From Escherichia phage CMSTMSU: 64,000 bases of DNA. The stretch lies in sequence record MH494197.1, one strand, 5' to 3'. Numbering within the stretch: position 1 is the stretch's first letter; each line of letters begins with the position of its first letter. The notes under the pieces were generated by a model that ran no database searches, was not told the DNA's origin, and was given only the letters and a program-made list of their open reading frames with translations. Made by a program: the position numbers and the translations under genes. Positions 3,237-37,429 of this stretch are shown one piece after another.

Positions 3237-3482
3237 TCATAAGGTGTCTTCTCCTGAAATATTATCCAGCTTCAATCCATAATATTCACCTTCTCCGTAC
3301 TTTTGCTTCAAAACAATACCTGTACTACTAATGTTTACAATGTACGTATCAACAATCCCTTCTGTGCTAAAAGGAATATTTAACTCTGAACCTTCAGGGT
3401 ACTTAGCATTGAATGCATCTAATGCTTTACTTAGCACTGGGATTGCACTGGTACTGTACTTCATTAATTGGTCTATGATCAT
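3237..3482 (-). CDS. hypothetical protein
   Basis: Track ORF; 4-nt overlap with the next gene suggests translational coupling. Confidence 0.45.
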   Translation of the reverse strand: MIIDQLMKYSTSAIPVLSKALDAFNAKYPEGSELNIPFSTEGIVDTYIVNISSTGIVLKQKYGEGEYYGLKLDNISGEDTL

Positions 3483-3853
3483 TTTAATTCTGTAATCACT
3501 GCATTTACTGCACTTGATGCAAATAAACTGATATTTGAACGATACATATCGTACACTGTACTTTCTTTCTTGTGCACAATGAAATCATAAAGATCAACGA
3601 ATGCAGGAATAATAATCTTGAATGATTTATTTGGGTACGTCCCAAAATCAACTGTACTCAATTTTGCAACGAGCATAACAACAAAGATTTCTTCTGGACT
3701 ATGCAATGTACTGTACTGAAAATATTCCTCAGCACTCATGGCACTTATTGCATTTATATCTTGTGTTTGTAATGTAATATTAAGATATTCAAAAATAGAA
3801 TAAAACTCTGATTTTGTTTGTATTTTGTATTTGTCAATTGGGGTATCTCTCAT
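3479..3853 (-). CDS. hypothetical protein, FQ-motif family
   Basis: SAEEYFQYSTLHSPEE motif; start/stop overlaps with neighbours. Confidence 0.5.
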   Translation of the reverse strand: MRDTPIDKYKIQTKSEFYSIFEYLNITLQTQDINAISAMSAEEYFQYSTLHSPEEIFVVMLVAKLSTVDFGTYPNKSFKIIIPAFVDLYDFIVHKKESTVYDMYRSNISLFASSAVNAVITELK

Positions 3854-4104
3854 GAACCATAAACGATCTTGTCCATAAAAGGAATGATTGAATTTGGGGA
3901 AGCCAGAAATACTTCTTCACTATCAATATCCTTTAACTCAATTTGCATACCGGATGAATTGGCAATAATTAATTCATTAAAAATATAATGAACCTTGTGT
4001 ACAATCTCTTGTACTGAATTGAAATCATCTGGTATTTTAAAATTTTCCATAGGTATCTCCTTAAAATGATTACACATTGTACCATGCATTTGTACTCGTG
4101 TCAA
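3850..4104 (-). CDS. hypothetical protein
   Basis: Track ORF with coupled stop/start overlap. Confidence 0.45.
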   Translation of the reverse strand: MTRVQMHGTMCNHFKEIPMENFKIPDDFNSVQEIVHKVHYIFNELIIANSSGMQIELKDIDSEEVFLASPNSIIPFMDKIVYGS

Positions 4105-4120: not shown

Positions 4121-4618
4121 TTACGATACAGGCATGTTTATTTGAATTTCATTGTACAAATCATCAATATATAGACATGAAAACGATAAACTTTCTTTAA
4201 CTATATTGTTGTGATAAAGCATTTTAAATGCAATATAGAAAAATAAATCAATATCATCATGTACTAAATTCTGCTGGAACCACCACTCTTCTGTTAAATC
4301 TTGTGCATTAAAATCATCAGGAACTACAATTGACGACATATCAGCATCTTCTTTGTACTCAAACCACATGTCGTCATTTGGATAACGTTCATGCTTCTCT
4401 GGGTAACAATTGCTGGGATTAAATGCTAAAATATAAAATGCCGTCGCAGAATGTTCTTTATTATAAAATGAATTATTCCACACCTGATACCTTTCACCAA
4501 CATCAAACTCTTTTGATACTGATGTTATTGCACATAATGTACGATATATTGTTTCTATTTTGTGAACAAATTTAAAGGCTGCATCTAAACTGAACTCTAA
4601 ATCAGACATGCGGTGCAT
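4121..4618 (-). CDS. hypothetical protein, FQ-motif family
   Basis: EEWWFQQNLVHDD motif. Confidence 0.5.
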   Translation of the reverse strand: MHRMSDLEFSLDAAFKFVHKIETIYRTLCAITSVSKEFDVGERYQVWNNSFYNKEHSATAFYILAFNPSNCYPEKHERYPNDDMWFEYKEDADMSSIVVPDDFNAQDLTEEWWFQQNLVHDDIDLFFYIAFKMLYHNNIVKESLSFSCLYIDDLYNEIQINMPVS

Positions 4619-4938
4619 AAAATTACCTCAACTAAAATAAGAACGGTATTGAATTCGAGGCAACCTTTGATACCTTGATTGTACATGTACTTTGCTACTA
4701 CATATTTCTGTACTAAATTATAATTATTAAATTCCTCAAAATTGTAATTTAGAATGAAATTTGTACTCAAAAATAACTTATGCATCTCTAATGCACTCTG
4801 ATAATATTTGTACAACTCACTGATATCAATACTTTGTAAATCACTTTGTTCATATGTATGATAAGGAATGGCGTCAATATCAATATTATTAAACCATTCT
4901 CTTAACTTATTAATATCAAATGTATTATTCAGCTTCAT
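4597..4938 (-). CDS. hypothetical protein
   Basis: Track ORF, minus-strand block. Confidence 0.45.
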   Translation of the reverse strand: MKLNNTFDINKLREWFNNIDIDAIPYHTYEQSDLQSIDISELYKYYQSALEMHKLFLSTNFILNYNFEEFNNYNLVQKYVVAKYMYNQGIKGCLEFNTVLILVEVILCTACLI

Positions 4939-5071
4939 AACTCAATACCTCCATTAAGCACTCATAAACACCATCAATCGCATAAGCACAAAACTGAAAT
5001 TAATTTTGTTATTCTTGTGTAATGGACTATCGTGTACTGTACTCAACATAACACTATAAAACAAAGAACGT

Positions 5072-5500
5072 TCATGTGTAAATAATGATTCCTGAAAAAT
5101 GCTTCCTCTGATTTAATTTTATTATATTCAATCGATTGATCATTAGAATAAAATGAATCTTGATTTGAATTGTACCATGTGTAATCCAAATCATTCTTTG
5201 ATATAACTGGTGTTGGATTAAACTGTAAAAGACTAATAACACTACGGGCATTTGGGGTATCAGGTGTATTGAATCGTTTATCAAAATGACTCGTGCACGC
5301 AATATGTGAATCAAAATCAGATGGTTTAAACCCCATGAATGCGTTAATGATTCTTGTATATGGTTTTTATTATGTGCTGCTTTCTGTACATTATATAAGG
5401 CTGCAACAATACAAGCTAACTTTTGTCCCATAAGGATTGCATTAGCGTAGGTGTACTGAATTTCATTGTACTCATTGCTTTCATTGTACTTCGAGATCAT
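5072..5500 (-). CDS. hypothetical protein (alternative frame 5043..5336 suggests frame disruption)
   Basis: Two overlapping same-strand ORFs in different frames. Confidence 0.35.
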   Translation of the reverse strand: MISKYNESNEYNEIQYTYANAILMGQKLACIVAALYNVQKAAHNKNHIQESLTHSWGLNHLILIHILRARVILINDSIHLIPQMPVVLLVFYSLIQHQLYQRMIWITHGTIQIKIHFILMINRLNIIKLNQRKHFSGIIIYT

Positions 5501-5690
5501 GGAACAGCCTCACTTTGCCTAACTCGTCATTGGATATTAATTCGTTAACAGCTTTTTGTATATTCTTTAATAATAGCACATCAAATCCTTTTGTGTCAAG
5601 CACACATTGCATTTGGAAGAATTCTTCTTCTGATAATGTATTAAAATCCACAAAATTGTCTAATATTACGTCATTATCCAAATGTGCCAT
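5481..5690 (-). CDS. hypothetical protein, FQ-motif family
   Basis: TLSEEEFFQMQCVLD; close paralog of 5818..6129. Confidence 0.55.
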   Translation of the reverse strand: MAHLDNDVILDNFVDFNTLSEEEFFQMQCVLDTKGFDVLLLKNIQKAVNELISNDELGKVRLFHDLEVQ

Positions 5691-5817
5691 GTGCCATGTA
5701 TTTCTTTCGAGCGTTTAATAAAATTCCATCCATCTGGATAATCGGGTTCTAATTCTACATATATCCCCGATACTGTATAAAGCATTTTATATATCATAAC
5801 TATTGTACTCATTGTTT

Positions 5818-6129
5818 TCACTGTACGTCGATGTCATAATACGCTCCTACCTCATAATCTTTCTTGCTTTGGAATTCATTAACGACTTTCTGTATATTTC
5901 TTAATGTTACCATGTCATGTCCGTACATGTCAACCACCAATTGCATTTGGAAAAATTCTTCTTCAGATAATGTATTAAAATCTATAAAATAATCCGTAAC
6001 AACCTGTGCGTCTAAATTTGCCATGTACCATTGATTGGTATCGACCTCTTTAACCAAATTCCATGCATCTGGATCGGATTCTAATTCTACATATATTAAT
6101 GTTAATGTATAAAGCATTTTATACTTCAT
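5818..6129 (-). CDS. hypothetical protein, FQ-motif family (starts MKYKMLY)
   Basis: TLSEEEFFQMQLVVD; part of a duplicated two-gene cassette. Confidence 0.55.
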   Translation of the reverse strand: MKYKMLYTLTLIYVELESDPDAWNLVKEVDTNQWYMANLDAQVVTDYFIDFNTLSEEEFFQMQLVVDMYGHDMVTLRNIQKVVNEFQSKKDYEVGAYYDIDVQ

Positions 6130-6463
6130 AACTATATCCTTGCATTAATAAATCATAAACGTTTGAAAGGTGCGGAATTTTGATATAAAATTTAAAACCC
6201 TTAATTAAAGGATTCGCGTACAATGAACTGAATAACTTTAGATAATGTATTTGACGAGGACTGTATAATAACGATTTCTGAAATAATTCAGCACTACAAT
6301 CTGAACTAATATCAATTAAATCAATTCGTGCTTCTACTTCATCATCTTGTTTCAAAACATAAAAGAAATAATCGTTTGTGTTGACCCACAAATACCCTTC
6401 ACTATTTTCGTATATAACAGGAGATGCTTGTTCTGGATTGCCTTGGCAAATGCTGCAAAACAA
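6119..6463 (-). CDS. hypothetical protein ending ...LLMQGYSYEV
   Basis: Paralog of 6700..7014 (identical C-terminus), SAELFQKSLLY motif. Confidence 0.5.
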   Translation of the reverse strand: MFCSICQGNPEQASPVIYENSEGYLWVNTNDYFFYVLKQDDEVEARIDLIDISSDCSAELFQKSLLYSPRQIHYLKLFSSLYANPLIKGFKFYIKIPHLSNVYDLLMQGYSYEV

Positions 6464-6699
6464 ACTTTTGCATTACTTTCATCTTTAAACATAAACGATA
6501 ATTTATCATATCTATCTTCTATGCGTAAATCACCTATAAAATGTACTTATGCATAGAATGATTATTCTTGAGCATAAGCATTACTGTACTAATCTTGTGT
6601 GCTAATAATTCTATCTCATTCATATATTATTACCTATTGATTGATACATCGTCATTGTCTTCTAATTCAACATAAATCATATCTTTTGTATAAAGCATT

Positions 6700-7014
6700 T
6701 TATACTTCATAACTATATCCTTGCATTAAAAGATCATAAGCAATATCAACTAATTCTAAACGAATGAAAAATTTTAAATTATCTTTCAATGGATTCAAAT
6801 GCATTGTACTAAACAACATAAGATACTTCATTTGATTTGTATTGTATATTAGGGATGTCTGGAATACTTCTGCTTCATTGTAAGGATCAATGAATTTTAT
6901 ACCTTCTTCACTGTAATCCGTTTTGGAATTCTGATATATAAAATAATCATCACCAGCATTGTACCACAAATAACCTTCAAAACTGGAATCAAATTCTGAA
7001 TTTTCATTTCGCAT
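6700..7014 (-). CDS. hypothetical protein ending ...LLMQGYSYEV
   Basis: Paralog of 6119..6463; followed by a truncated MKYKMLYT copy. Confidence 0.5.
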   Translation of the reverse strand: MRNENSEFDSSFEGYLWYNAGDDYFIYQNSKTDYSEEGIKFIDPYNEAEVFQTSLIYNTNQMKYLMLFSTMHLNPLKDNLKFFIRLELVDIAYDLLMQGYSYEV

Positions 7015-7259
7015 TAAAGGTGATACTGAAATTGGATTTGAACCAACTGTTGCACAAACCTCAATGAAAGCATCTTCATTTCCTTAACTTCTTCTTTGAT
7101 TTTATCATTGTACTGACCTGCAAAACCAGCTTTCACTTCCAAATATAAACTACTCCCAACTTTATTAATTCTTAAAAGGGAACTCTGTACTGTATTCGCA
7201 TTGTTCAGCACTAACGATATTGTGCAAATCTTATGTACCAATAACTCAATATCATTCAT
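7014..7259 (-). CDS. hypothetical protein
   Basis: Track ORF. Confidence 0.4.
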   Translation of the reverse strand: MNDIELLVHKICTISLVLNNANTVQSSLLRINKVGSSLYLEVKAGFAGQYNDKIKEEVKEMKMLSLRFVQQLVQIQFQYHL

Positions 7260-7270
7260 ATTGGTATTCC

Positions 7271-7486
7271 TTAATTTGGTGGATTTGGATGTAATAACTG
7301 ATCTATATAATTTAAATGTTCTATTGTAACTAATGAAAGATAATAATTGTAATTATCTATACCACCCTTTAAATGTATATTGTAATACATCTTGATACTT
7401 ACTAATAAAGAATCATTTAAATCATTTATTGCTTTTGTATTAACGGTTTTCATTAATGTTCTTCTCTTAAAAACGCTTAATGGCAC
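7271..7486 (-). CDS. hypothetical protein
   Basis: Track ORF. Confidence 0.4.
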   Translation of the reverse strand: MPLSVFKRRTLMKTVNTKAINDLNDSLLVSIKMYYNIHLKGGIDNYNYYLSLVTIEHLNYIDQLLHPNPPN

Positions 7487-7626
7487 AATCTAAATAAAAA
7501 TCATAATACATCATATCTCTATTCTTAACCCATACACAATAATCTGCATTAATATTTCTTAATAATATATTCATATTATAATCTTCACACCCTAATCGTG
7601 CCATTTAATAGGATACTCCGTTCCAT

Positions 7627-7839
7627 TTATTGTATAAGATATAATCCATCCGTAATGAATAGGATGATTTTTGTCTGAATCAGGAATAAAATATAAAGAT
7701 GTACTGGGTTATAACTGAATAAATCGTTGTTACCAATTGTAAAATGTGATAACTCAATCTTCCTTGTACCTGTACTTGGACGAAGAACATTCTTAACACC
7801 GAAGACTGTACCTTGATATTTCTCGGAAAATTCAAACAA
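7627..7839 (-). CDS. hypothetical protein
   Basis: Track ORF. Confidence 0.35.
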   Translation of the reverse strand: MFEFSEKYQGTVFGVKNVLRPSTGTRKIELSHFTIGNNDLFSYNPVHLYILFLIQTKIILFITDGLYLIQ

Positions 7840-7964
7840 TGCATCTGCAATTAAATCACGAAACTCCGCATGTATGGTTTCAAAAAATCTATATTACACG
7901 ATGTTTTAATATCCTTGAACTCCTTATATAAAGAGCTTCTTGTATTCAAAAGAAATATTACTTT

Positions 7965-8165
7965 TTAAGATCCTGAACTATTTCTGGATTCATATTCATT
8001 TATCTCATTCTGTAACTTAAGCATCAAAATTTGCATATTAATTTTTTGTACAAGGTGATTGAGAAATTTCTGTACTGTATCTTCTTGTTCTTTTGACCCA
8101 AGATAAAATAACATATTAAATTCCGATAACCTCAGAGCAAAATCTTCCTCTCCCCTCGTAAACAA
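7965..8165 (-). CDS. hypothetical protein, LGT-motif family
   Basis: LFYLGSKEQEDTVQKF resembles the LGTNYQE core. Confidence 0.45.
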   Translation of the reverse strand: MFTRGEEDFALRLSEFNMLFYLGSKEQEDTVQKFLNHLVQKINMQILMLKLQNEINEYESRNSSGS

Positions 8166-8199: not shown

Positions 8200-8412
8200 T
8201 TACCTTTTTATACCTTTGGGTCTGCATTGTATCTCCTTTTTCAAACACCTTATTAGATTATCAACGTATTGGTCCTGTACTATTGTCCCTAGATAAAATA
8301 ATACATCGAACTCTGATAATTTTATATTGAAAGGATCTACATATACATCTTTAATAAACTCTTTGTACTTCAAAATATATGCATTAGGTAAATTCTTATA
8401 TATCGATTTCAA
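8200..8412 (-). CDS. hypothetical protein, LGT-motif family
   Basis: LFYLGTIVQDQYVDNLI. Confidence 0.45.
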   Translation of the reverse strand: MKSIYKNLPNAYILKYKEFIKDVYVDPFNIKLSEFDVLFYLGTIVQDQYVDNLIRCLKKEIQCRPKGIKR

Positions 8413-8626
8413 TGATCCTCCCTGACATACCTTGTATTAGCTTATCATACATATCTAGCATTACTTTTTGAATACTAATTAATACTGGCATCGTGCAAAT
8501 ATCAATGTCGTATATTAAGCTGTACTGGAATAATTCCTCTTCCTGCATTTGTACTAAATTAGGTAAAAGATAATTGTCTGCCTCTTCATCCGGTACTTGA
8601 ATGCATAACGCCATCCTTTTGTACAA
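8396..8626 (-). CDS. hypothetical protein, FQ-motif family
   Basis: EEELFQYSLIYD. Confidence 0.5.
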   Translation of the reverse strand: MYKRMALCIQVPDEEADNYLLPNLVQMQEEELFQYSLIYDIDICTMPVLISIQKVMLDMYDKLIQGMSGRIIEIDI

Positions 8627-8712: not shown

Positions 8713-9063
8713 TTATATGTGGAATTCACATACGTGTTGAACAAAATTCTTTGGAAGATGACAATGTGTAATCATCTGCTTTTGTACTTCCTTCATATCT
8801 TCGAATGTAAATCCTAAAGAATCATCATGTACTAACAAGTACTGAAACTCTTCTTCTTCAGAGATAGAACATAAATTCGGTACTGAAATTGTGTTTGTTT
8901 TTCTTGCACCTAATTTCCAATGAAAAGAATTATTGCATTTTCTGTACTCAAATATCTTCAACCCAGAACCTGTATTAAAATCAGCTACTACAATGTAACA
9001 TGAATTCTTACGTACAATACAATTGAACTTACGCATTATCTCCACCTCTCTCCGTCTGTACAA
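8713..9063 (-). CDS. hypothetical protein, FQ-motif family
   Basis: SISEEEEFQYLLVHDD. Confidence 0.5.
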   Translation of the reverse strand: MYRRREVEIMRKFNCIVRKNSCYIVVADFNTGSGLKIFEYRKCNNSFHWKLGARKTNTISVPNLCSISEEEEFQYLLVHDDSLGFTFEDMKEVQKQMITHCHLPKNFVQHVCEFHI

Positions 9064-9340: not shown

Positions 9341-9715
9341 CTAGTATTGCACTGTTCTAATGAAAGTACCTTTACTCATGGATTTAAGCTTATGAACCTC
9401 TTCCTGCATACCCTTAATTAACCCTAAAGGTATAGGTAAATCATGTACTAAGCTGTACTGAAAGTATTCTTCTTCAGATAAAGTACTAACATCTGGAATG
9501 CCAATTTTAGTTAGATAATCTTGATGTGTTGACCAATAAATTATATCTTCAGTACTATTGTACTCCCCATATACTGAACAATATTGATGAATATCTTTCC
9601 TGTACCCTTGAGCAATAAAGAACTTATCTACTGCATTACCAGCATTAATAGAATTCACTTCGATTGTCACAGTACTTGAGCTTGTTTTTCCTTTACTATG
9701 CATATTAATCCCCAA
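9341..9715 (-). CDS. hypothetical protein, FQ-motif family
   Basis: STLSEEEYFQYSLVHD. Confidence 0.5.
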   Translation of the reverse strand: MGINMHSKGKTSSSTVTIEVNSINAGNAVDKFFIAQGYRKDIHQYCSVYGEYNSTEDIIYWSTHQDYLTKIGIPDVSTLSEEEYFQYSLVHDLPIPLGLIKGMQEEVHKLKSMSKGTFIRTVQY

Positions 9716-9891
9716 ATTAGATATCGAACACTATCAGCTTGATAGTTAGTTCCTACTGTGTGTTTTAATATTAACTCATCTTTCAGTACTGAACATTCTG
9801 CATTAGATATAGGAAGAGAATTAATTCTTTGAATTTCTGGTCGCAAAATACCGCGAAGCTTGCGGTAATCTTCGTATGATAATATTTTCAT
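9667..9891 (-). CDS. hypothetical protein
   Basis: Track ORF. Confidence 0.4.
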   Translation of the reverse strand: MKILSYEDYRKLRGILRPEIQRINSLPISNAECSVLKDELILKHTVGTNYQADSVRYLIWGLICIVKEKQAQVL

Positions 9892-10238
9892 TGTTTAGTA
9901 CTCAATAATGTGTTCTTCATAATCACCATTAGGCTCTGTTTAGCTTCTTTCATTAGTACTATCATTTTATGTACTAATGGCATAGGAAATTCTAAATCCC
10001 ATACTAATGATTCTTGAAAGTATTCCTCTGGTGATAAAGTACTTAAATCTTTAATATCAACGTGCTTGTATATTTTATTTTCGTAATTAACAAATGATAT
10101 ATATAAATCATTAATATAAGAATCATACGTAATTGTGAATGGCTTACCCTTGTAGTCCATTACATCTCTACATAGACTACTTTTGATATATATATGTTCA
10201 TAGGATTTATATACCTTGAGTTGTATATTAGTTTTCAT
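9888..10238 (-). CDS. hypothetical protein, FQ-motif family
   Basis: STLSPEEYFQESLVWD. Confidence 0.5.
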   Translation of the reverse strand: MKTNIQLKVYKSYEHIYIKSSLCRDVMDYKGKPFTITYDSYINDLYISFVNYENKIYKHVDIKDLSTLSPEEYFQESLVWDLEFPMPLVHKMIVLMKEAKQSLMVIMKNTLLSTKQ

Positions 10239-10503
10239 ATTTCTCTTTATTAGATTGTGTGGTTTTATAGTGAATGAAATCTATTAATGTAATCAAGTAC
10301 AACGTCAAATAGTACTCTTGTTGATCTGTACCTAATGATACAAAGAACTTGTGCTCATAGATTAAAACCTGTTTCTCTTCAAATGGACATTTAATCCTCT
10401 GTATAGGCTTAAGTAAATGATAGTACTTATTAAATCTATGATACATTTCTAGTTCTGTCAGTACTTTCATATTAAACACGTACTCCATTAGCTGTAGCAT
10501 CAC
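10228..10503 (-). CDS. hypothetical protein, LGT-motif family
   Basis: LGTDQQEYYLTLYL. Confidence 0.45.
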   Translation of the reverse strand: MMLQLMEYVFNMKVLTELEMYHRFNKYYHLLKPIQRIKCPFEEKQVLIYEHKFFVSLGTDQQEYYLTLYLITLIDFIHYKTTQSNKEKYEN

Positions 10504-10693
10504 GTAAAGCTGTCAAATACTTCTGTACTGCTTGCTCTTGCTTATTTGTACCTAAAAGTATATACATCCATAATTCACTGTAATGTACATCTTCTGTATA
10601 AGGGTTGTTGTAACTTTTTGATAATATAGCATCAAATTCAGATGCATGAACCCTTGTGAACTTAAGAATATCTTGTTGTGTTATGATTCTCAT
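10472..10693 (-). CDS. hypothetical protein, LGT-motif family
   Basis: LLGTNKQEQAVQKYL. Confidence 0.45.
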   Translation of the reverse strand: MRIITQQDILKFTRVHASEFDAILSKSYNNPYTEDVHYSELWMYILLGTNKQEQAVQKYLTALRDATANGVRV

Positions 10694-10899
10694 ATTTTTC
10701 CTGTACTATCTGTATAAGAATACCTATGTGTGAATTAACAGTTCTCTCTTGATGCTGTGTTCCTAAGAGTGTCAGTACTATCATATCTGAACGCAAAAGA
10801 TTTTTTCAAGTTCACTTATATCAGTTCTTGAATCAAGTGCCATATATTTGTGATTATTCTTCCTGAATAGTGCCAAGTACTCTTGATTTGATATTTCCT

Positions 10900-11430
10900 T
10901 CATAGTTTATCCCTGATGCCATTTAAAAGTGCTCTAATATGTTCCTGTACGAATTTGTACTGACTGTCTGTTCCTAGAGTGAGTAGCAATCTTAAATCTG
11001 AACTTTTGATGTGATATTCTAAATCATTATTTGATTCTTGCATCAGTTTCTTAAAGGATGAGAAGTTTGCAGCCATTAGTTCAATGTATTCTGCTGTTCC
11101 TAGTGGTTTGTGTATTGGCTGTTTGTGCATTTTAATTTTATTACCCTTTGAGTGTATTAATGTAATTATACACATTGGCTTTTGATAGTTAGTTCCCAGT
11201 GTAGCTTGAACATAGATTTCATTTAACTTAATAATTTTATCAGTATCTGGTAGTTTTGATGTGTTAATGGCAAATAACTTCAAAACAGTCCATTTAAGAT
11301 TGTTAGGTATTCTTCGTCGGTAATGATTCGCATTTGCATTGGATAAACCTTTTAGTTCTTTGATGTAATCATTAATATTGCATTCTTGATAGTTAGTCCC
11401 TAGGGTAGCTTGAACATAGATTTCACTCAT
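10900..11430 (-). CDS. hypothetical protein with three LGT modules (fusion or read-through of tandem paralogs)
   Basis: ATLGTNYQ occurs twice plus LTLGTDSQYKFVQEHI. Confidence 0.4.
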   Translation of the reverse strand: MSEIYVQATLGTNYQECNINDYIKELKGLSNANANHYRRRIPNNLKWTVLKLFAINTSKLPDTDKIIKLNEIYVQATLGTNYQKPMCIITLIHSKGNKIKMHKQPIHKPLGTAEYIELMAANFSSFKKLMQESNNDLEYHIKSSDLRLLLTLGTDSQYKFVQEHIRALLNGIRDKL

Positions 11431-11533
11431 TAGAATATTTTTTCTTCATCAGGTAAATCTGTGGTCTTTGCTATATACAATTTTAGAATTAAACTACTTA
11501 ATAGTTCGTGGTATTCACTTGGTGAAAGGATTT

Positions 11534-11749
11534 TCATTTGCATGTTCTCAGTACAGATTCTTTAAGTTCATCGATGTAGTCCTCAACGAATTGCTCTTGG
11601 AAGTTAGTTCCAACATATAAAAGAACTCTTAAATCTGCTCTAAGTAACTCTTTTTCATCCTCATCTATATCAGACAATGTTATGTTTAAGAATTTACTTG
11701 TATTAAAGATTAACAATTCTGTTTGTTCACTGTGGTTTAAAATTTTCAT
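11534..11749 (-). CDS. hypothetical protein, LGT-motif family
   Basis: LLYVGTNFQEQFVEDYI. Confidence 0.5.
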   Translation of the reverse strand: MKILNHSEQTELLIFNTSKFLNITLSDIDEDEKELLRADLRVLLYVGTNFQEQFVEDYIDELKESVLRTCK

Positions 11750-11957
11750 AATCTCTTTTTGCTTTCCTCGACAGTAGGTACAAATACGATTCTTCGTATT
11801 GTGCTTGGAAGTTTGTGTTTAAGAGTCGAAACAACTTCTGTTCTTCTAGAACGAGTTGCTTATCTTCATAACAACGGTAGCGTATCAACTTTTTGTATTC
11901 GATGTTGATTACATCCATTACTATAAGCCCATGTTCATCATCTGTCAAGTGCTTCAT
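11727..11957 (-). CDS. hypothetical protein, LGT-motif family (variant)
   Basis: LLNTNFQAQYEESYL. Confidence 0.45.
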   Translation of the reverse strand: MKHLTDDEHGLIVMDVINIEYKKLIRYRCYEDKQLVLEEQKLFRLLNTNFQAQYEESYLYLLSRKAKRDYENFKPQ

Positions 11958-12162
11958 GCTTTTTTCTTTTCCTGATGTGTTTAGTTAAAAGGTATATTAG
12001 TTTTCTGATGTATTCTTCCTGATAGTTTGTTCCTAGGAGTGCAAGAAGTTTTGCTTCAACTAAAGCTAATTGACGTTCTTCGAATGTGTGTTCCAGTATG
12101 TACTTTGGGTTTGATTTTTAGATATTGCACTATTAGTTTTCATTACAATCTTATGATATTCA

Positions 12163-12420
12163 TTAACTGTTAGGATTTTTAAATTCTTGAGCATGTACCT
12201 TTTCCTTTATAGAGAATTTAAGATATCGAAGCATACTTTCAATGTAATACTCTTGTCTGTCAGTTCCAAGAAAGTACAGGAGTTGAATGTATAAAACTTC
12301 TGCACTCCTTTCGGCATGTGACTTGTTTGTGTCGTTTGGAAGTTGATTTGTAAGTTTTCTGGATTTAATTAATCGTTCTTTTAACTCATCGTCTGTTAAG
12401 TATATCATTTCATTTTGCAT
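12163..12420 (-). CDS. hypothetical protein, LGT-motif family
   Basis: FLGTDRQEYYIESML; N-terminus MQNEMIYLTDDEL shared with 12457..12645. Confidence 0.5.
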   Translation of the reverse strand: MQNEMIYLTDDELKERLIKSRKLTNQLPNDTNKSHAERSAEVLYIQLLYFLGTDRQEYYIESMLRYLKFSIKEKVHAQEFKNPNS

Positions 12421-12456
12421 TTACTTTTTCCATAATAGTAATTTTGAGATATTTAA

Positions 12457-12645
12457 TTATACGTTCAATGTGATACTTTGCCTATCAGTTCCAAGAAGGT
12501 ATGGTAATGACTGGAATAAAACTTCTGCACTCCTTTCTGCTGGGGTTTGGTTTGGGTCATTTGGAAGTTTATTTGTAAGTCTTTTGGATTTATCTAGTCT
12601 TTCTGTTAACTCATCATGTGTTAAGTATATCATTTCATTTTGCAT
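12457..12645 (-). CDS. hypothetical protein, LGT-motif family (C-terminus probably frame-disrupted)
   Basis: Near-identical N-terminus to 12163..12420, ends prematurely after LGTDRQ. Confidence 0.45.
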   Translation of the reverse strand: MQNEMIYLTHDELTERLDKSKRLTNKLPNDPNQTPAERSAEVLFQSLPYLLGTDRQSITLNV

Positions 12646-12881
12646 TTAATGTTCCTTACGTAAATTGTCTGGATTAAAAGTGAAATCCATTTTTCTACAT
12701 ATTGGTTTTGATACTGTGTGCCTAAAAGACTCTGCATTTTAAACTCTTCTTCGAGTGCATATCTCGTTTCTATAGTAAAGCTTAAATGACCATATTCTTT
12801 ATCGTATCTTCTCAGTGCTTCCCCAATTCTATCAAATCTTTCTGCTATTCTGATGTTATTAATTTTATTCATCGCATTCAT
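12630..12881 (-). CDS. hypothetical protein, LGT-motif family
   Basis: LLGTQYQNQYVEKWI. Confidence 0.5.
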   Translation of the reverse strand: MNAMNKINNIRIAERFDRIGEALRRYDKEYGHLSFTIETRYALEEEFKMQSLLGTQYQNQYVEKWISLLIQTIYVRNIKCKMK

Positions 12882-12966
12882 CGATCAGTACACCTTAGTG
12901 GACGGGTCATTTGATAAAAGTACAGCTTACCTTTGATTTCCAATAGTAACTCAGCAATTAATCGAT

Positions 12967-13155
12967 TTACTTCTGGCTCTTGATAGTTTGTCCTAACAAT
13001 GCACCCATCTTTAACTCACGCATCATAATCATTTTCTTACTGTGTTGAATTTCTGGGTTGTGATAGATTGTATTACGTTTGTGTGTAATTTTTGTCATAC
13101 GCTCGGTATATTCATCTTTACTTAAATTGATCATTTGCATGTTCATCAACCTCAC
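12967..13155 (-). CDS. hypothetical protein, LGT-motif family (variant)
   Basis: N-terminus MQMINLSK shared with 13563..13811. Confidence 0.45.
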   Translation of the reverse strand: MRLMNMQMINLSKDEYTERMTKITHKRNTIYHNPEIQHSKKMIMMRELKMGALLGQTIKSQK

Positions 13156-13562
13156 ATTTATTTTCGATACAAATCATTAGTTCTCTAAGATAGTTTTTAT
13201 CTTACCTTCCTGATGGTTCGTCCCGAAAGTTGCATAACTCTGCTTCTATCATTTTGATTCTTCTGGTGTCAGGTTTCAATCTTTTGTTATTGAAGATTTG
13301 AATCCTTATATCCCTTGATGCATTTAAACGTTTTGATATTCATGGAAAGATAAATTAATCATTTACTTTGTATCTCTCTCTTGAGGGCATCAATTAACAA
13401 CAGTACAGCATTCTCTTGATAGTTTGTTCCTAAGACTGAAAGCATCTTAATCTCATTTACTACGATCAACTTCTTTGAGCGTTCAATAATGTTACTATTA
13501 TAAACGGCGTTACGTGCTGGATAAGTTTTGCAAGACGATCATAATATTCATCTTTACTTAAA

Positions 13563-13811
13563 TTAATCATTTGCATTTCTCGTACATTTACTTAGTTTAC
13601 TCCCAATGTATTTCTTAAGTGTAATTATATATTCCTCTACATAATACTCCTGATAGTTAGTTCCTAAGAATGCACATAGCTTTGTCTCACGCTTCATAAT
13701 CATCTTATTTTCGTGTTTGTTTACTTCACCGAAATGGATTTCATTAAGTTTAGGTAAGATTTTTGCTTGGCGTTCTTTATATTCAGATTTACTTAAATTA
13801 ATCATTTGCAT
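13563..13811 (-). CDS. hypothetical protein, LGT-motif family
   Basis: FLGTNYQEYYVEEYI. Confidence 0.5.
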   Translation of the reverse strand: MQMINLSKSEYKERQAKILPKLNEIHFGEVNKHENKMIMKRETKLCAFLGTNYQEYYVEEYIITLKKYIGSKLSKCTRNAND

Positions 13812-14014
13812 TTACTTTGGATCTCCTTGACTAATGCATCAACCCACATGTCTATATACATTTGTTGATAGTTTGTCCCTATGAGTGCCCTGCATAGAGT
13901 TCAGCTATCATTGCATGTTTTAGGTTGGCAGGATGCTCTTATCAGATTGAATCTTTACTCTTCTGTTGGCACATGTTTTCAGGAGTCTGATGTATTCAAA
14001 GCCTTGTAATTTTC

Positions 14015-14230
14015 TCATTCTTTAGATATCACCTTGTTACGTAAGGCACTTAACAATACGTCAGTGTAGATGTTTTGATAGTTTGTTCCTACGAAAGCAC
14101 CCAACTTCATTTCAGCTATTATAACACATTTGTCCTCTTGTGCAATAGACTTGTCTAAAGAAATACTAACAACTTTCCTTCTTATAGCTTGTAATCTCCA
14201 ATGATACTGATACTCATTTAGGGTTATCAT
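14015..14230 (-). CDS. hypothetical protein, LGT-motif family
   Basis: FVGTNYQNIYTDVLL. Confidence 0.5.
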   Translation of the reverse strand: MITLNEYQYHWRLQAIRRKVVSISLDKSIAQEDKCVIIAEMKLGAFVGTNYQNIYTDVLLSALRNKVISKE

Positions 14231-14465
14231 TCTCTCGCCTCCATATCTCGGTTCTAATGTGTTGACATTGTGCTTCGATGAACATATCTATTGATTTGGC
14301 AATTGCGTTTTTATCTGTGCCAGTCATCAGTACAAGCATCTCGGCCTCACAGTGAAGTAAACGCATGATATCATAGGGTAATATTCCAGATACCGTGTCA
14401 TAGTGTTTCTGTGCCAGTGTCTGTAATAGTTTACAATACATTTTGTGATTTAGTCTGTGTCGCAT
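14214..14465 (-). CDS. hypothetical protein, LGT-motif family (variant)
   Basis: LMTGTDKNAIAKSIDMFIE. Confidence 0.45.
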   Translation of the reverse strand: MRHRLNHKMYCKLLQTLAQKHYDTVSGILPYDIMRLLHCEAEMLVLMTGTDKNAIAKSIDMFIEAQCQHIRTEIWRRENDNPK

Positions 14466-15587
14466 TGTTTATTCCATTCTTTTTGGCCCTCTGGGTTTTA
14501 TATTGGATTTGGTTTCTTAATGCTGATAAGTATCGTTGAATGAACAGATCTTGATAGTTTGTTCCAATGAATTTCATAAGATAAAGTTCACCGTTGATAA
14601 CATCCACTTCAGGTGCACCATATAAGGCATTGTTTTTCTAAGGGCATGGATTAAAGAGAATAGGGCAGTTTGATACTCAACTCCTGATAAAGTCTTCATG
14701 TTTTGTGAGCCAATAATCATCTAGTTTATCCTGTATAACATTCATTAATTGTTCGACATATTCTGTGCAAAACTTATCTTGATATTGAGTCCCATAAAGT
14801 ACAGCAACCATAGCTCATTAACTTTAGCTCGCATTTGGTTCCATGTAAGGCTGGGGTCATCGTAGACTATCCTTGCTATAGGGTTAGTTTACGGACTATA
14901 GTTTCATATTCATCTAGTGTTAAGTGTTTCATTTACATTTGTCCCTTATTAGATCAGTGAGGGCAACTATGTGTGCAACAACATACTCTTCCTGAAAGTT
15001 CGTCCCAGTACAGCCATCATGCGTATATCGGTGGTGTTTATCCTGTGTTCCCTTACACATAAACCTTCTGTGTGAGGAAGTGTAAAATATTTGTTTATTG
15101 CAGCAATGATAATTTTATTCTTCTCGGAATTACTTAAATGTTTCATAGTTTGCTCTTAATGTATTTCTGGAGTGCAATTATATACTCATTCAAGAAGTGC
15201 TCTGATAATCTGTGCCGAGGAATGCACCCAATAGTATATCATTTTCCAATACTAATGCTAAGTTCAAATCATCAGTCTCTTCATATACTATGAGAATTTC
15301 AAGTTGTCTGGCAGCGACGCGTTCGGTATATTGATTTGAGTTTGCAATGATATTCATAGTTTACTCTTTATGTAATTCTTGAGTGCAATTAAGTATTCCC
15401 CTACATAATACTCCTGAAAGTCTGTATCCAAAAATGCACCCATAAGTAAATCTTTTTCTAATACCCTTGATAAGTTAAGGTCTGCATTTGAAAGGTATAT
15501 AAGTAAGATTTCACCCTGTGCGGAATTGAAACGTTTCTTATATTCTTCTGGTGTTAAAAAATCATAGTTTACTCTTAATATCTTCTA

Positions 15588-15770
15588 TTAAAAATGAATC
15601 CAATCGTCAACATACTCTTCCTGATGGTTTGTGTTCAGTACAGCCAACATGCGGATCTCTGCTCTTGCAACTTGGATTTCAGTTTTAGAAAGGTCTTTGC
15701 TGATATCAAACATTAAGTCCATGTATTTCAAGATAAGACCGAATGATTGGGTTCGTGTTATAGTTTTCAT
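15588..15770 (-). CDS. hypothetical protein, LGT-motif family
   Basis: VLNTNHQEEYVDDWI. Confidence 0.45.
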   Translation of the reverse strand: MKTITRTQSFGLILKYMDLMFDISKDLSKTEIQVARAEIRMLAVLNTNHQEEYVDDWIHF

Positions 15771-15967
15771 TGTTTCCTCGTGGACAATATTTCATTTTTC
15801 AATGCATCCATATATTGAATCACCCATCTTCCCTGATAGCTTGTTCCCAATGTAATCAAAAGGTATAACTCAATTCGTTCTAAGTTTGTGTCTGTGTTAT
15901 AAATCTTTACCATGTTTTTACGTAACAGTTCTTGATAATCTTCTTTATTTAAAATACGCATTTTCAT
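15767..15967 (-). CDS. hypothetical protein, LGT-motif family
   Basis: TLGTSYQGRWVIQYM; 4-nt overlaps with neighbours. Confidence 0.5.
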   Translation of the reverse strand: MKMRILNKEDYQELLRKNMVKIYNTDTNLERIELYLLITLGTSYQGRWVIQYMDALKNEILSTRKQ

Positions 15968-16161
15968 AGTCTACCTTTTATGTCCCTTCGTAATTCTTGT
16001 AAGTATAGTTCGATATACTTTTCTTGATAGTTAGTTCCTATGAAAAGTTTCATAACCAATTCACGCTTATATGCAATACCACGGATATGTGACATATGTA
16101 GGATATATGCCATGTTGGATATGAGTGTGTGGTTGTGCTCTTCTTCAGTTAAAATACGCAT
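15964..16161 (-). CDS. hypothetical protein, LGT-motif family
   Basis: FIGTNYQEKYIELYL. Confidence 0.5.
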   Translation of the reverse strand: MRILTEEEHNHTLISNMAYILHMSHIRGIAYKRELVMKLFIGTNYQEKYIELYLQELRRDIKGRL

Positions 16162-16205
16162 AGGGACTCCATTAAAAATAATATCAATCCCATAATATAC
16201 GATTC

Positions 16206-16380
16206 ATATAAAAGTCAATAACATTTTATTCGTAATACCCTTTATCGAAGTCGCTAAGGTTACCCGCCCTTTAGCCCCTACGCATTTTGCCATAGTCCAA
16301 TCCTTTTATTCATAAAAGTCAAGGGATTACCTATGCATTTTTTAACGCTGAAGTTTAAAAATGCCTTGACTTTTTATGAT
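16206..16380. repeat. TCATAAAAGTCAA repeats (two direct, one inverted) in ORF-free region
   Basis: Copies at about 16206 and 16312 (direct) and 16365 (inverted TTGACTTTTTATGA). Confidence 0.45.
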
Positions 16381-16877
16381 TCAGTACTAAATCCTTTTAC
16401 GCATTAATCCTTCGTTACGCTTACGATTATCTGTGTATCCCCATAGTCCTGCCATACTTCCACGCCAGCCGTCGCCCGGTTAGTCGTGCTGTCATCTGCT
16501 TAATGGTCTTAGGCTTTAGTGGAACCTGTTGCAGTACTGTACGCATAGTATCATCGACGTTATCGTGTACGCCTGCAATAGTGCCTAGGACGCTGTATAC
16601 GTGTATAGAACATATGTATGCCCTCCTGATATAGTTAAGGCCGCTACAAGGCGGCCTATGATGTTTGGTGATGTGTAACGCTTACAGTCCTAAGATAGTG
16701 CGTGCTTCGTTACGTTCCGTGCACAGCTGCATGATGTGAGCAAGTAAGTCCTTGCTAATGTATCCGGTGTTCATAGCTTCACGAATAGATACATCATAAG
16801 CACCGAACCCGTGCGAACGATACGCACATCATTCAGGTTAGTATTATAGATACCGCCGAGATCAACGGCTTCGAATA

Positions 16878-21080: not shown

Positions 21081-21296
21081 CTACTTTTTAACATTAACGG
21101 CGTGAATCACTTCCTTAGTGTTTTTAGTACTGAATACTTTCGCCGCTCCTTGTTCGACCGTGATACGATAGCGACCATTAACATCAACCATATTAATAAA
21201 GTCCGGCGTGCTGAATGGTGTTGTTTTGCATTTGAGTACTGTTAACAGTTCCACCAGCGATGTAGTTTCTTTGATACGTTTTTCTAAAGTAATCAT
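21081..21296 (-). CDS. hypothetical protein (71 aa)
   Basis: Track ORF, tightly abutting the neighbouring gene. Confidence 0.5.
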   Translation of the reverse strand: MITLEKRIKETTSLVELLTVLKCKTTPFSTPDFINMVDVNGRYRITVEQGAAKVFSTKNTKEVIHAVNVKK

Positions 21297-21434
21297 TTTG
21301 TTTCTCCCCGTGTTGGTATGTACATATAGTACTAAAACATTTGAGTACTGTCAATTAGATAATATTATATTTCTTAAAATAAAATGCGTCTTGTGTTGGT
21401 TGATACTCGATACCGTTACCGTTATTGACTTCAA

Positions 21435-21629
21435 CTAATAAACCTTTGTCAATAAGTTTTTAATAGTACGATACCCTTGTTGAAAATTGGTAAAATGTGA
21501 ATCATTACGAAAGGTATAACCGTGCTTAACTGCTTCATCAATAGTTTTCTTTTCGATTTTAGATAATTTCATTTTGTTTCTCCCGTGTTGGTATATGTAC
21601 ATAGTACTAAAACATTTGAGTACTGTCAA
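21435..21629 (-). CDS. hypothetical protein
   Basis: Track ORF; the likely start is the internal MKLSKIEKK. Confidence 0.4.
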   Translation of the reverse strand: MTVLKCFSTMYIYQHGRNKMKLSKIEKKTIDEAVKHGYTFRNDSHFTNFQQGYRTIKNLLTKVY

Positions 21630-22423
21630 CGTGATATTAGTTTTATTTTCTTATTGTATTGTTGATGCTCATAAAGGTTTATCTTTCCTGTGTTCTCGAT
21701 TACTATCCTGTTGTTAGTGTCCACATCGATTACACGCAGTTTCCGTTGCTTAACTTCCGGGTAATAGGTTACCATTAATAAACTCATTAGCAAGCTGTAC
21801 GGCCTTTGTGATGATTCTCTTCGGTGCTTTATAGTGTACCCGTAAGATGTTATCTTTATATAGTTGAACCTTAATCATTTTGTTTGTCCTATAAAAAGGC
21901 GGGAACTGATCCCGCCGTGTTGTTAGTACTGCAAGTTATTAGATAACCGGCGGCGTTTACTGTATACTGTTACACGATTACCCTTACGGTCGTGTCGGAT
22001 CTCTTTCTGGTTGCGAATCAGTTCACTTGGACGCTTAAGGTTTGCCGTGATCCGCGTGAGTCCATGCATTGGCATTTACCTGTACTTTGATATCAGAACC
22101 AGCGATAAACTCATCTTGTGCGTCAGTATTGCCGCCAGCATATCCGCTCGTTTTAGTTCTGCTGCTGTTAGTACTGGCTCAGGTGAATTCACAATATCAG
22201 AGATCTTTGAACTGTACGGCCCAGCGTTGGCCTTTCGGTGCATCTTTGCCCATGTCTTTAAATGCTGCTCCTTCCTCGCGTGCAACAATACGGGCAGCTT
22301 CACGGGTAGCGTAGAATTTAGTAATCATGGTATACATCCTATTAGTTAAGTTAGTACTACAAGTTAGAGTCTATTATAAAGTACTATCTGGGCAATGTCA
22401 AATAGTACTTTAAATGGATTCTA

Positions 22424-22624
22424 TTACATGTCTTTCTTACGTTTTACATCGTGGTAGCGAACTGTTATTTCTTTGTTGATCTCTTCCTCGATGCGGTGAA
22501 TAACTTTTTCTTTCGGGTTGAAACCTATAACGGTTTCTTTAATGATCTCAAGCCCGTGTATTCGCCTTGTGTACCGTAACCGTATGTAAAGGTTTCGTGT
22601 CCCGTGTCTTCCAGCGGTCGCCAA
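22424..22624 (-). CDS. C-terminal fragment of the preceding gene
   Basis: Overlapping same-strand ORF in a different frame. Confidence 0.35.
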   Translation of the reverse strand: MATAGRHGTRNLYIRLRYTRRIHGLEIIKETVIGFNPKEKVIHRIEEEINKEITVRYHDVKRKKDM

Positions 22625-22745
22625 TTAACGCAGACACGTAGCAAGAGTGGTAAGTATTGCCGTGTGAATCAGTCCACCGATTAACGTTAATGTCAAAGGA
22701 GGTTACAATTTTCAATTCTACTTTCTGGGCAAGGATCATAGCCAT
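22548..22745 (-). CDS. hypothetical protein with RWTDSHGNTYHSC motif (frame-disrupted; continues in 22424..22624)
   Basis: Motif shared with the gene at about 29.7-30.0 kb; starts after cassette 22765-22826. Confidence 0.4.
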   Translation of the reverse strand: MAMILAQKVELKIVTSFDINVNRWTDSHGNTYHSCYVSALIGDRWKTRDTKPLHTVTVHKANTRA

Positions 22746-22764
22746 TTTATTTCTCTCTTTTAGT

Positions 22765-22826
22765 TAGGAGGAACCATTCCCTCACTTGATGTAAACTATT
22801 ATACAGTACTAAGATACTTTGTCAAT
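22765..22826 (-). promoter_or_regulatory. sigma70-type promoter (TTGACA-N16-TATAAT) plus 5' stem-loop cassette
   Basis: Minus strand: TTGACA 22820-22825, TATAAT 22798-22803, then inverted repeat GGAGGAACC/GGTTCCTCC before the ATG. Confidence 0.6.
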
Positions 22827-22843
22827 ACTTATTTTTGGAAAGT

Positions 22844-23008
22844 TTACGCATTAATTCTACGCTTTCTTGTGAACGTTTTGCTACCGGCAAGCTGCATGGG
22901 TAGTAAACATTTTGTATAGTCTGACGCTTTGCCACCGAACCGAGCGGCACGTTCACGGGCACTTGGAACTAATACTATTTCTTTCTTGCAGATAGTGCAC
23001 TTAGCCAT
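22844..23008 (-). CDS. hypothetical small protein (54 aa, MAKCTICKKE…)
   Basis: Hand-translated; below the track cut-off; ATG directly after a promoter cassette. Confidence 0.4.
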   Translation of the reverse strand: MAKCTICKKEIVLVPSARERAARFGGKASDYTKCLLPMQLAGSKTFTRKRRINA

Positions 23009-23666
23009 TTTATTTCTCTCTCTTTGTTAGAGGGGAACCGTTTCCTCACTCGATGTAAACTATTATACAGTACTAAGATACTTTGTCAATACTTAATTAT
23101 TGTAAATGTCGTGAATAGTGATAAAGTTTTTACGACCGTAAACCTGCAAATCAATATCAATGTAGTGCTTATCTAGTACATCCTCGACGCTTAACGCGGT
23201 GTCGTGGATATCTTCGTAGAATTGAGTATCTACAATCTTGCTTAAGTCATCCGGCGTTAACTCATCGTTAAGCAGTTGAACCGCCGGATATCTGCTTCAC
23301 GTTTCCAGTCTTCCAGTTAGTAGTCAGTACTTGTTCGATTTCGTTAGCTGTCAGTAGAATCCGCATTTTTATGTTTCCTTATCAGTGGTTGATGTAAGTA
23401 TTATACTCGTTTACTTTCTATTGTCAAACTATTTTATCAGGGAGTTTTTCGTATGTCTTACTCGACTACTTAACGGGGTTACTTGTTTCGTTCCCCGTCC
23501 TGATGTAAAACATTATACTTGATTCTAAGTACAATGCAAGTACTTTTTAAAAATAGTTTTCAGTACTAGCCACCAGCAAACAATAGATACATTTATGCAC
23601 CCTGTGGGCTGATTTGTTTCTATGCGTATATAATAGCAAAGGACTGAATCCCTTATTCAATTATTT

Positions 23667-23816
23667 TTAAACTTCTTTCGGGTTGCGATAGGTGATAGCG
23701 TTCGGGTACATTTGTTTAATGTTATTCCATGCCCGGTTGACATTGTAACCACTTGATCGAATCAGTTGGTTACTACCGACACCTTGAAACACTACTTCGA
23801 ATAAGAATTCTTTCAT
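23667..23816 (-). CDS. hypothetical small protein (49 aa)
   Basis: Hand-translated; SD GAGGTGA 6 nt upstream of ATG. Confidence 0.45.
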   Translation of the reverse strand: MKEFLFEVVFQGVGSNQLIRSSGYNVNRAWNNIKQMYPNAITYRNPKEV

Positions 23817-24351
23817 GCTTTCACCTCGCGATCTGCTTTACCTTTACGCCGACATTACTAATTGTTCGCGTTGCCATAAGTCGAGTGATACAAAAGTTTT
23901 GCGGTATCACTTTTAGGATACTCGCCATTAGTACCTAACCGATAAAACAGATCTTTCAGTACTGATAATTCTACTTGGATCATTATACTTTCTCTTTGTT
24001 GGGAGGGAACTATTCTTCCGATATAAAACATTATACACTTTATTCAGTACAAGTACTTTTAATCTTTCAGCCAATGATCCTGAATGAATTTTTCACCGGA
24101 ACCTTGCTGCATTGATTGTAACAGACGTTCACGATGAGCGGCGGCGAATTGCTCAGTACTATGCGTTACACCGGTTGATATCTGGATTCACCATTGGGGC
24201 TGATGTATTGTACATCCCACGGTTTTTCGTTAGTATCAGACCATTTACGAACGATTAGTTGACCTTGCATTTTTCTTTCTCTTAGTGGGGAGAATCATTT
24301 CTCCCCTTCATGTAACTTATTATACAGTACTAGATTATCTTGTCAATAGTT

Positions 24352-24636
24352 TTATTCACCTTGTTTGAATTTAGTTTTCTCCATTGATTCCATGATTGCA
24401 ACCAATACGCCGTGGATCTCGCTTAACGCGGAATCACTAAAAGCATTAATGAATAGTCGATCATTCTCGCGAATATTTTTAATGTACTTTTCAGCAGTAG
24501 TTGCGAATTCATTCAACGGTAGATCAAATGCTTTATCCCATGATGGATGGCGTAATTGTAACAGTACTGGATTATCACGATCACGGGAAAACGTACCAGT
24601 GATGAAACATACGCCCGAATACTTTCGAACTGGCAA
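24352..24636 (-). CDS. hypothetical protein (94 aa)
   Basis: Track ORF. Confidence 0.45.
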   Translation of the reverse strand: MPVRKYSGVCFITGTFSRDRDNPVLLQLRHPSWDKAFDLPLNEFATTAEKYIKNIRENDRLFINAFSDSALSEIHGVLVAIMESMEKTKFKQGE

Positions 24637-25279: not shown

Positions 25280-25462
25280 TGTCAGTAGTACGCGTGATAT
25301 GTTGTATTCCCATGATTTCTATCCTCAGTTAAGATATAAAACATTATACACTATCTTTCAGTACTGTCAATTACTTTTATCTCATAGATCTATGCCAACA
25401 ATTACGCGGATCTCTTTAAAAGTACTATCATGATCCTCCGGCAAGTAATACAATACATGCAC

Positions 25463-37410: not shown

Positions 37411-37429
37411 CTCAATACTGATCACTACA

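Follow-up and report, generated by a model that had tools for sequence, protein, structure and literature searches.

An old array of tandem paralogs with duplication scars and a conserved gene junction in an Asteriusvirus-like jumbo coliphage

Introduction

Does a long exact repeat between neighbouring paralogs mean that they were duplicated recently? The question is raised by a row of small genes in the record of Escherichia phage CMSTMSU (MH494197.1), of which we analysed a stretch of 64,000 nucleotides, hereafter the window. According to the initial annotation, a cassette of two genes at positions 5481-7014 was duplicated in situ not long ago, and the copies are now falling apart through truncation and frameshift. 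In favour of that reading are the paralogs lying in tandem on one strand, an exact repeat of 43 bp, a truncated partner open reading frame (ORF) and several broken ORFs. We propose another, which we consider probable and the best explanation of the locus as a whole: an old paralog array with real duplication scars, in which a conserved junction serves as crossover point, represented here by an error-rich assembly.

Results and discussion

An array of AB and C genes on one strand

The window belongs to an Asteriusvirus-like jumbo coliphage of the 121Q/PBECO4 type. Its best nucleotide matches are fEgEco12, WPEC5 and EC.P1, each at 98.3%, and positions 5000-8000 are matched by 33 phage records, all of Escherichia or Salmonella jumbo phages of the 121Q/PBECO4 group (Asteriusvirus). 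In fEgEco12 the region lies at the left end of the record, among more than 110 consecutive small genes of one strand, nearly all of them hypothetical.

The locus forms a single array on the minus strand, with the transcription order AB2, C2' (a stump), AB1, C1, AB0' (a stump), C0, AB0 and g101. Here 'AB' designates the genes of phrog_19795, present in three copies (AB2, AB1 and AB0), and 'C' those of phrog_33987, present as two full copies and one 26-codon stump; all of them are arranged head to tail in the same orientation. AB2 (6700..7259, 186 aa) matches phrog_19795 over its full length (E=1e-49), and both AB1 (6119..6623, 168 aa, E=5.5e-33) and AB0 (4925..5500, 189 aa in relatives, E=4e-56) cover the whole profile. 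Among the C genes, C1 (5818..6129, 103 aa) is intact and matches phrog_33987 with E=7e-41, while C0 (5481..5797, E=4e-54) is a 121Q-type paralog of 108-113 aa in relatives, 79% identical in amino acids to 121Q gp350. The C2' stump (6630..6710) consists of the first ~21 codons of C followed by spacer and is still recognized by the C profile (E=1e-8). Downstream of AB0 lies its partner, a g101 homolog (4597..4938, minus strand, 113 aa, phrog_36216) with the same overlapping start: AB0 ends in …LMEVLSYEAE and a stop, which overlaps the ATGAAG start of the next gene in the manner of AB and C. Further downstream, a g103 homolog (3482..4104, minus strand, frameshifted in the window) is the fourth AB-family gene, more distantly related (AB profile E=5e-22), and the ph0011 homolog aligns with the AB family as well.

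The elements on which the initial annotation was built are all found in the sequence: the ORFs 6119..6463 and 6700..7014 ending in LLMQGYSYEV, the ORF 5818..6129 starting MKYKMLYT, the 26-codon ORF 6630..6710, which is indeed the truncated remnant of a C gene, and the ORF 5481..5690. The 42-mer that it quoted as a repeated junction occurs at 6107 and 6688, within an exact repeat of 43 bp, and the diverged third copy is present at 5775-5801. The third AB paralog (4925-5500) and a second joint (5787-5837) did not figure in that annotation.

Broken reading frames and the quality of the assembly

Several of these ORFs are only parts of genes. Between 4900 and 7300, comparison with six close relatives reveals seven single-nucleotide deletions unique to the window, versus four unique substitutions. 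The deletions split four genes, each of which is single and intact in the six relatives. AB2 is divided into the ORFs 7014..7259 and 6700..7014 by a deletion at ~7081-7084, AB1 is broken into three pieces by deletions at ~6537-6542 and 6444-6447, C0 is divided into 5666..5821 and 5481..5690 at ~5708-5710, and AB0 is broken into three pieces at ~5363-5369, 5094-5100 and 4989-4994. Uninterrupted AB2 genes of 186 aa are found in fEgEco12, WPEC5, WPEC3, J, EC.P1, Turkey3 and Ecwhy_1, the last of which is an UNVERIFIED record. The two '…SYEV' ORFs, first taken for whole genes, are thus the 3' parts of genes of 168-186 aa that also cover 6534..6623 and 7014..7259. Likewise, the ORF 5481..5690 was rightly recognized as a paralog of 5818..6129 (C profile E=2e-39), but it is partial, representing the C-terminal two thirds of C0.

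The same bias is seen on a larger scale: over 37.3 kb aligned with fEgEco12, the window lacks 304 single bases and has 33 extra ones, often in homopolymers. About one frameshift per 120 bp would be incompatible with a viable phage, and from their number and direction we infer that the frameshifts of the window are deletion-biased sequencing errors of the assembly. The apparent pseudogenes of the window would then be mostly assembly errors, which bears on every ORF-based finding made from it.

An assembly so rich in errors might also have produced the tandem arrangement itself, through misassembled repeats. This explanation can practically be dismissed: six relatives, each sequenced independently, have the arrangement with their reading frames intact, the unit carrying AB1 recurs in seven further phages, and an assembler would not be misled by a repeat as short as 43 bp.

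A conserved stop/start overlap explains the 43-bp repeat

The exact repeat (6106-6148 and 6687-6729; no match in 100 shuffles) coincides with two gene junctions on the minus strand. At 6687..6729 the stop of AB2 overlaps the start of the C stump (ATGAAGTATAA), with a Shine-Dalgarno sequence, AAGGA, 7 nt upstream; at 6106..6148 the stop of AB1 and the start of C1 are combined in the same way. The repeated sequence, TTAATGCAAGGATATAGTTATGAAGTATAAAATG…, encodes both the conserved C-terminus of AB (LMQGYSYEV and stop) and the conserved N-terminus of C (MKYKM.YT). Its end, …AAGGATATAGTTATGAAGTATAA, contains an 11-nt stop/start overlap, so that the AAGGA preceding the C ATG lies inside the upstream gene. 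The third copy (5775..5801, minus strand) is partial and diverged; of the AB end no more than 15 nt remain, and the Shine-Dalgarno sequence AAGGA has been lost.

The core of this junction is alike in every AB-to-C junction of the 13 phages that we examined, including phages with a single junction, where free synonymous variation in the core is not seen. The overlap of AB0 with g101 consists of the same AGTTATGAAG as that of AB with C. Of the nine invariant residues within the last 14 columns of the AB alignment, eight are always encoded by the same codon, versus 18 of 43 elsewhere (Fisher p=0.024, a modest excess in an AT-biased genome), suggesting that the constraint acts partly at the nucleotide level. 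The 43-bp identity reflects a genus-wide conserved stop/start overlap and ribosome-binding site and does not date the duplication. An upstream stop overlapping a downstream start, with the Shine-Dalgarno sequence within the upstream gene, is the arrangement expected of translationally coupled overlapping genes, and the junction may be kept by such coupling together with the conserved protein termini.

Other signals were sought at the junction. A 10-bp AU hairpin is not significant when compared with shuffled sequences (z = -0.55 and +0.24), and PBECO4-type alleles cannot form two of its base pairs. A promoter and terminator scan returned no promoter-like site across 6106-6148 or 6687-6729 and no terminator-like sites; weak 9/12 promoter matches lie just downstream of the junction copies, inside C. 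Scanning IMG/VR for the junction yielded 121Q itself as the sole match.

Could the identity instead be upheld mainly by ectopic gene conversion between junction copies of the same genome, rather than by functional constraint? In the window as in slurp01, the two 43-nt repeats flanking the AB1 unit are exact copies of each other, yet their sequence differs between the two genomes. In addition, a CT[T/G] polymorphism affects both junction copies, all four combinations occurring among close relatives, a pattern that hints at exchange between the copies. However, the core is equally well kept in the single-junction phages 121Q, PBECO4, A4 and UE-S1, where inter-copy conversion is impossible, and the junction encodes conserved protein termini, a Shine-Dalgarno sequence and the overlap. 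Conversion as the main cause is therefore unlikely in our opinion. More generally, a long exact repeat between paralogs can signal a conserved gene junction or recombination point rather than a young duplication.

The copies are old

Self-comparison of the locus, which should reveal extended identity beyond the junction if the duplication were recent, finds none: outside the junction, the two AB units align at only ~50-68% nucleotide identity. AB1 and AB2 share 59% of nucleotides and 44% of amino acids over aligned codons, AB0 is ~47-48% identical in nucleotides to either of them, and C1 and C0 share 73% of nucleotides and 59% of amino acids. Tandem Repeats Finder reports nothing at the locus, since the copies are too diverged. 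At identical residues the paralogs share 66-75% of codons, moderately above the 52-55% expected from codon usage. Neighbour-joining trees place AB1 beside the sole AB of phage A4 and outside a clade formed by AB2 and the alleles of 121Q, PBECO4 and UE-S1; C0 groups with the sole C of 121Q, and the stump is of the C type found in A4, PBECO4 and UE-S1. By these sequence comparisons the copies are old, as diverged as the deepest alleles of the genus.

Two duplication joints with different boundaries

The extra copies end in two recognizable joints. In joint 1 (6624..6649, minus strand), an ATG microhomology (6647-6649) links codon ~21 of C to a 23-nt segment (6624-6646) corresponding in sequence to the 3' end of a PBECO4/UE-S1-type g095 gene, which is normally upstream of AB; AB1 then follows. 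The C2' stump matches the 5' end of the A4/PBECO4-type C (…KDMIYVELE…), not C1; a frameshift reduces it to 14 codons in slurp01, so that it is not conserved as an ORF. Both facts identify it as a scar rather than a conserved small gene, and the presence of the same joint in slurp01 points to a single origin. Joint 2 (5787..5837, minus strand) is a fusion ORF of 16 codons, MTSTYSENNEYNSYDI and a stop, in which a 2-nt microhomology, AT, connects the first 12 codons of AB0 with the final 15 nt of an AB gene (…SYEV and stop in relatives); C0 follows. Repeat D13 (5465-5500 and 5802-5837, 86%) supports the AB0 origin of this joint. Joint 1 is common to 13 genomes in two backgrounds, and joint 2 to seven.

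The boundaries of the duplicated units differ: the first event involved AB with the first ~21 codons of C, the second the last 15 nt of AB, the whole of C and the first 12 codons of AB0. Comparison of the sequences thus indicates that two separate tandem events, with microhomology joints of 2-3 nt, gave the extra AB and the extra C, and the notion of one duplicated two-gene cassette does not hold. The C stump and the 16-codon AB0'/AB fusion ORF are the only genuine scars at the locus, and they are duplication joints, not stages of progressive decay.

What, then, remains of a recent duplication in decay? The tandem paralogs did come from duplication-type rearrangements, but 'recent' has to be abandoned given their 59% (AB) and 73% (C) nucleotide identity and the spread of both joints. 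The stump is moreover a different C allele from the full C downstream of AB1, the junction is no less conserved in single-copy phages, and the frameshifts belong to the window assembly with its 304 missing bases. We regard the original reading as very improbable.

A more serious competitor, to which we give somewhat less than an even chance, is that the tandem copies were never identical within one genome. Diverged alleles of two co-infecting phages would have been set side by side by unequal or illegitimate recombination, possibly much later than the divergence itself. Each type indeed exists elsewhere on its own: the AB1 type is the only AB of phage A4 (89% nucleotide and 81% amino-acid identity), the C0 type is the only C of 121Q (79% in amino acids), and A4 and PBECO4 have a full C of the stump type. 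AB and C alleles also occur in many combinations, and slurp01 amounts to PBECO4 plus the unit. On the other hand, both sides of joint 1 are PBECO4-like, which is what a simple duplication in situ would produce. An ancient duplication with differential loss of copies yields the same allele distribution, and an old duplication fits the AB tree equally well.

Copy number varies, probably through recombination at the junction

Comparison with related phages, proposed in the initial annotation as a check on copy number, shows that it varies and that all four possible architectures exist. Both extra copies are present in the window, fEgEco12, WPEC5, WPEC3, J, EC.P1 and Turkey3, the extra AB only in slurp01 and six others, the extra C only in Ecwhy_1, and neither in 121Q, PBECO4 and others. 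The AB1 unit is thus found in 13 of the 33 records, in two diverged backgrounds, and the C0 unit in seven. It is a 581-bp unit made of the C stump and AB1, flanked by the junction as direct repeat, and in both backgrounds, genomes that are otherwise nearly identical either have or lack it. When the sequence between the two 43-bp repeats is removed in silico, the window becomes collinear with Ecwhy_1 (97.7% identity over 2005 bp); removing the unit likewise makes slurp01 collinear with PBECO4. Ecwhy_1 was considered as ancestor of the window arrangement by in-situ duplication and was rejected, since the stump is of a different C allele from C1.

The junction is also where alleles change partners. 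Identity between the AB1-to-C segment of slurp01 and the AB1-to-C1 segment of the window is 97% upstream of the junction and 66-75% downstream; between PBECO4 and 121Q it drops from 98.7% to 64-74% at the same place, and between AB1-to-C of slurp01 and AB-to-C of PBECO4 it rises from 76% to 100%. AB2 adjoins three different C types, as does AB1. The AB1 genes of fEgEco12 and slurp01 are 97.8% identical in nucleotides, whereas the flanks of these two phages are only 69-88% identical and those of slurp01 are 97-100% identical to PBECO4. Loss alone is therefore insufficient, and the unit or AB1 must have moved between backgrounds at least once.

The copy number is thus still changing. In this limited sense the process can be called 'ongoing', with continued gain or loss of the unit, but it would proceed by recombination at the conserved junction, not by fresh duplication followed by decay. 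The junction would provide the homology for homologous recombination, by which AB and C alleles are reassorted and the unit is removed from some genomes and introduced into others. A stronger version is that the junction is a portable recombination site and the 581-bp unit a small mobile cassette, which would be cut out of one genome, perhaps in circular form, and enter another Asteriusvirus genome at its single junction. We hold this to be a tentative idea, with the odds rather against it; if true, it would account for the near identity of AB1 across otherwise dissimilar backgrounds. Recombination at the conserved junction would in any case be a clean illustration from nature of how, with only ~45-80 bp of homology, jumbo phages change both the number of copies of small accessory genes and the way in which their alleles are combined.

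Comparison with known phage rearrangements

Phage tandem duplications arise by unequal or illegitimate recombination at short homologies, as in the T4 rII duplications. The AB/C locus resembles them in its head-to-tail copies, its novel joints with 2-3 nt of microhomology, the truncated gene at the joint and the loss by recombination between copies. It differs in that its copies are old or allelic (59-73% nucleotide identity), leaving only the ~43-80-bp junction as recombination homology.

Another parallel is the modular shuffling mediated by PeSLs (promoter-early stem-loops) in the hyperplastic regions of T4-type phages, for which excision as mini-circles and re-insertion were proposed and physically shown (Arbiol et al. 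2010, PMC2839356; Comeau et al. 2014, PMC4122927). The AB/C locus has in common with them short conserved repeats around small genes without known function, and a unit, bordered by direct repeats, that some genomes have and others lack. In both cases, the stretches that closely related phages have gained, lost or replaced terminate at the repeats. However, the AB/C repeat consists of the stop and start regions of two overlapping coding genes, together with a ribosome-binding site, not of an intergenic promoter and stem-loop: it has no sigma-70 consensus promoter, no terminator or attenuator stem-loop and no intergenic position upstream of ORFans. From what the genomes reveal, the junction seems to play the part of a recombination linker, as PeSLs do, without being a PeSL itself. 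A mobile AB1 unit, if it exists, would be the coding-sequence counterpart of the PeSL mini-circle mechanism.

Possible role of the AB and C proteins

The literature offered us nothing on the AB/C gene family or on duplications in Asteriusvirus. A Pfam search with AB and C gave sub-threshold noise only, with no family, and a word-indexed protein search found matches only in Asteriusvirus-type relatives. An exhaustive profile search of 1.84 billion representative proteins returned 16 matches, all unnamed small proteins, and the fold matches of AB in BFVD are all uncharacterised proteins of RaK2-, GAP32- and SP27-type phages. AB (phrog_19795) and C (phrog_33987) are thus confined to the Asteriusvirus group, with fold-level relatives only among uncharacterised proteins of RaK2-like jumbo phages. 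The locus is comparable in this respect to the lineage-specific multigene families of these phages (RaK2, GAP32, SP27, 121Q), and AB resembles several of their uncharacterised proteins in fold.

Are AB and C themselves related? A helix motif, (S/T)EEE[FY]FQ, is common to AB, C and several neighbouring ORFs, and the predicted secondary structures of AB and C follow a similar order. We do not call them homologous, as hhalign supports a 20-column motif alone, with a probability of 55%. Our working view, based on their position, dispensability and allelic diversity, is that the AB and C proteins may be dispensable, fast-evolving accessory proteins acting on the host. The four natural architectures constitute ready-made strains for probing these orphan proteins.

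Single-base differences and gene calls

Over the part of the window that aligns with the close relative fEgEco12 (window 1-37700; 37.3 kb), the window assembly lacks 304 single bases and carries 33 extra ones relative to that phage. Truncated genes, pseudogenes and frameshifts are calls based on open reading frames (ORFs) from the window, and a comparison with relatives is needed before any of them is accepted.

Gene content of the array holding AB and C

In Turkey3 (locus L003, 3759-4088), a gene of about 330 bp, missing in the other phages of the window's clade, lies immediately upstream of AB2, a gene of the AB family (phrog_19795); the 3' end of this extra gene is similar to the gene that precedes AB in phage A4 (locus L006, 2144-2494). 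AB0 itself (window 4925-5500) has counterparts in WPEC3 (L011, 3627-4220) and J (L012, 3627-4202) that share 75% and 65% amino acid identity, respectively, with the fEgEco12 protein, the flanking genes on both sides being 96-100% identical. Judged by these identities, AB0 in WPEC3 and J is a one-gene allele replacement in otherwise near-identical phages.

A stretch of 170 bp at window 8214-8383 is absent from fEgEco12 and leaves the window with a pair of neighbouring diverged paralogs (ORFs 7965..8165 and 8200..8412), both displaying the motif LSEF[ND][MV]LFYLG. Going by the number of genes, WPEC5, J and Ecwhy_1 also have the additional small gene, and WPEC3 and EC.P1 do not. It is a further presence/absence polymorphism within the array that holds AB and its downstream partner C (phrog_33987).

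Many small minus-strand ORFs between window positions 200 and 10300 share a helix motif, (S/T)EEE[FYW]FQ..L..D; examples are 4121..4618, 8396..8626, 8713..9063, 9344-9730, 9891-10280 and 2198-2497. These motif-bearing ORFs match the AB and C profiles weakly (E of about 1e-3 to 1e-2), and they may constitute a superfamily occupying this part of the genome.

Other small-gene regions and short repeats

At about 10400-16600 of the window (21091-27280 in the fEgEco12 record), some 28 fEgEco12 genes, g057-g084, all hypothetical, follow one another in unbroken succession; they encode 65-85 amino acids and overlap mostly by 4 nucleotides. Small paralogs appear to form a far bigger tandem array here. 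In this interval Tandem Repeats Finder reported no repeats, so any copies there would be divergent.

Few of the approximately 110 small genes of fEgEco12 are named. The named ones (L014, the fEgEco12 record, 5284-5583, 11479-11736, 11800-12156 and 16161-16745) are annotated in the record as protein spackle, DksA-like zinc-finger protein, GNAT acetyltransferase and serine/threonine kinase, names that fit a region of host-takeover or accessory genes.

Tandem Repeats Finder detected short repeats at window 37419-37488 and 38099-38181, with units of 22 nucleotides in two to three copies and of 43 nucleotides in two copies (97%). They lie near window position 37.7 kb, approximately where the window extends beyond the first base of fEgEco12's linear record, and may be connected with the genome end or with the way in which records are opened.
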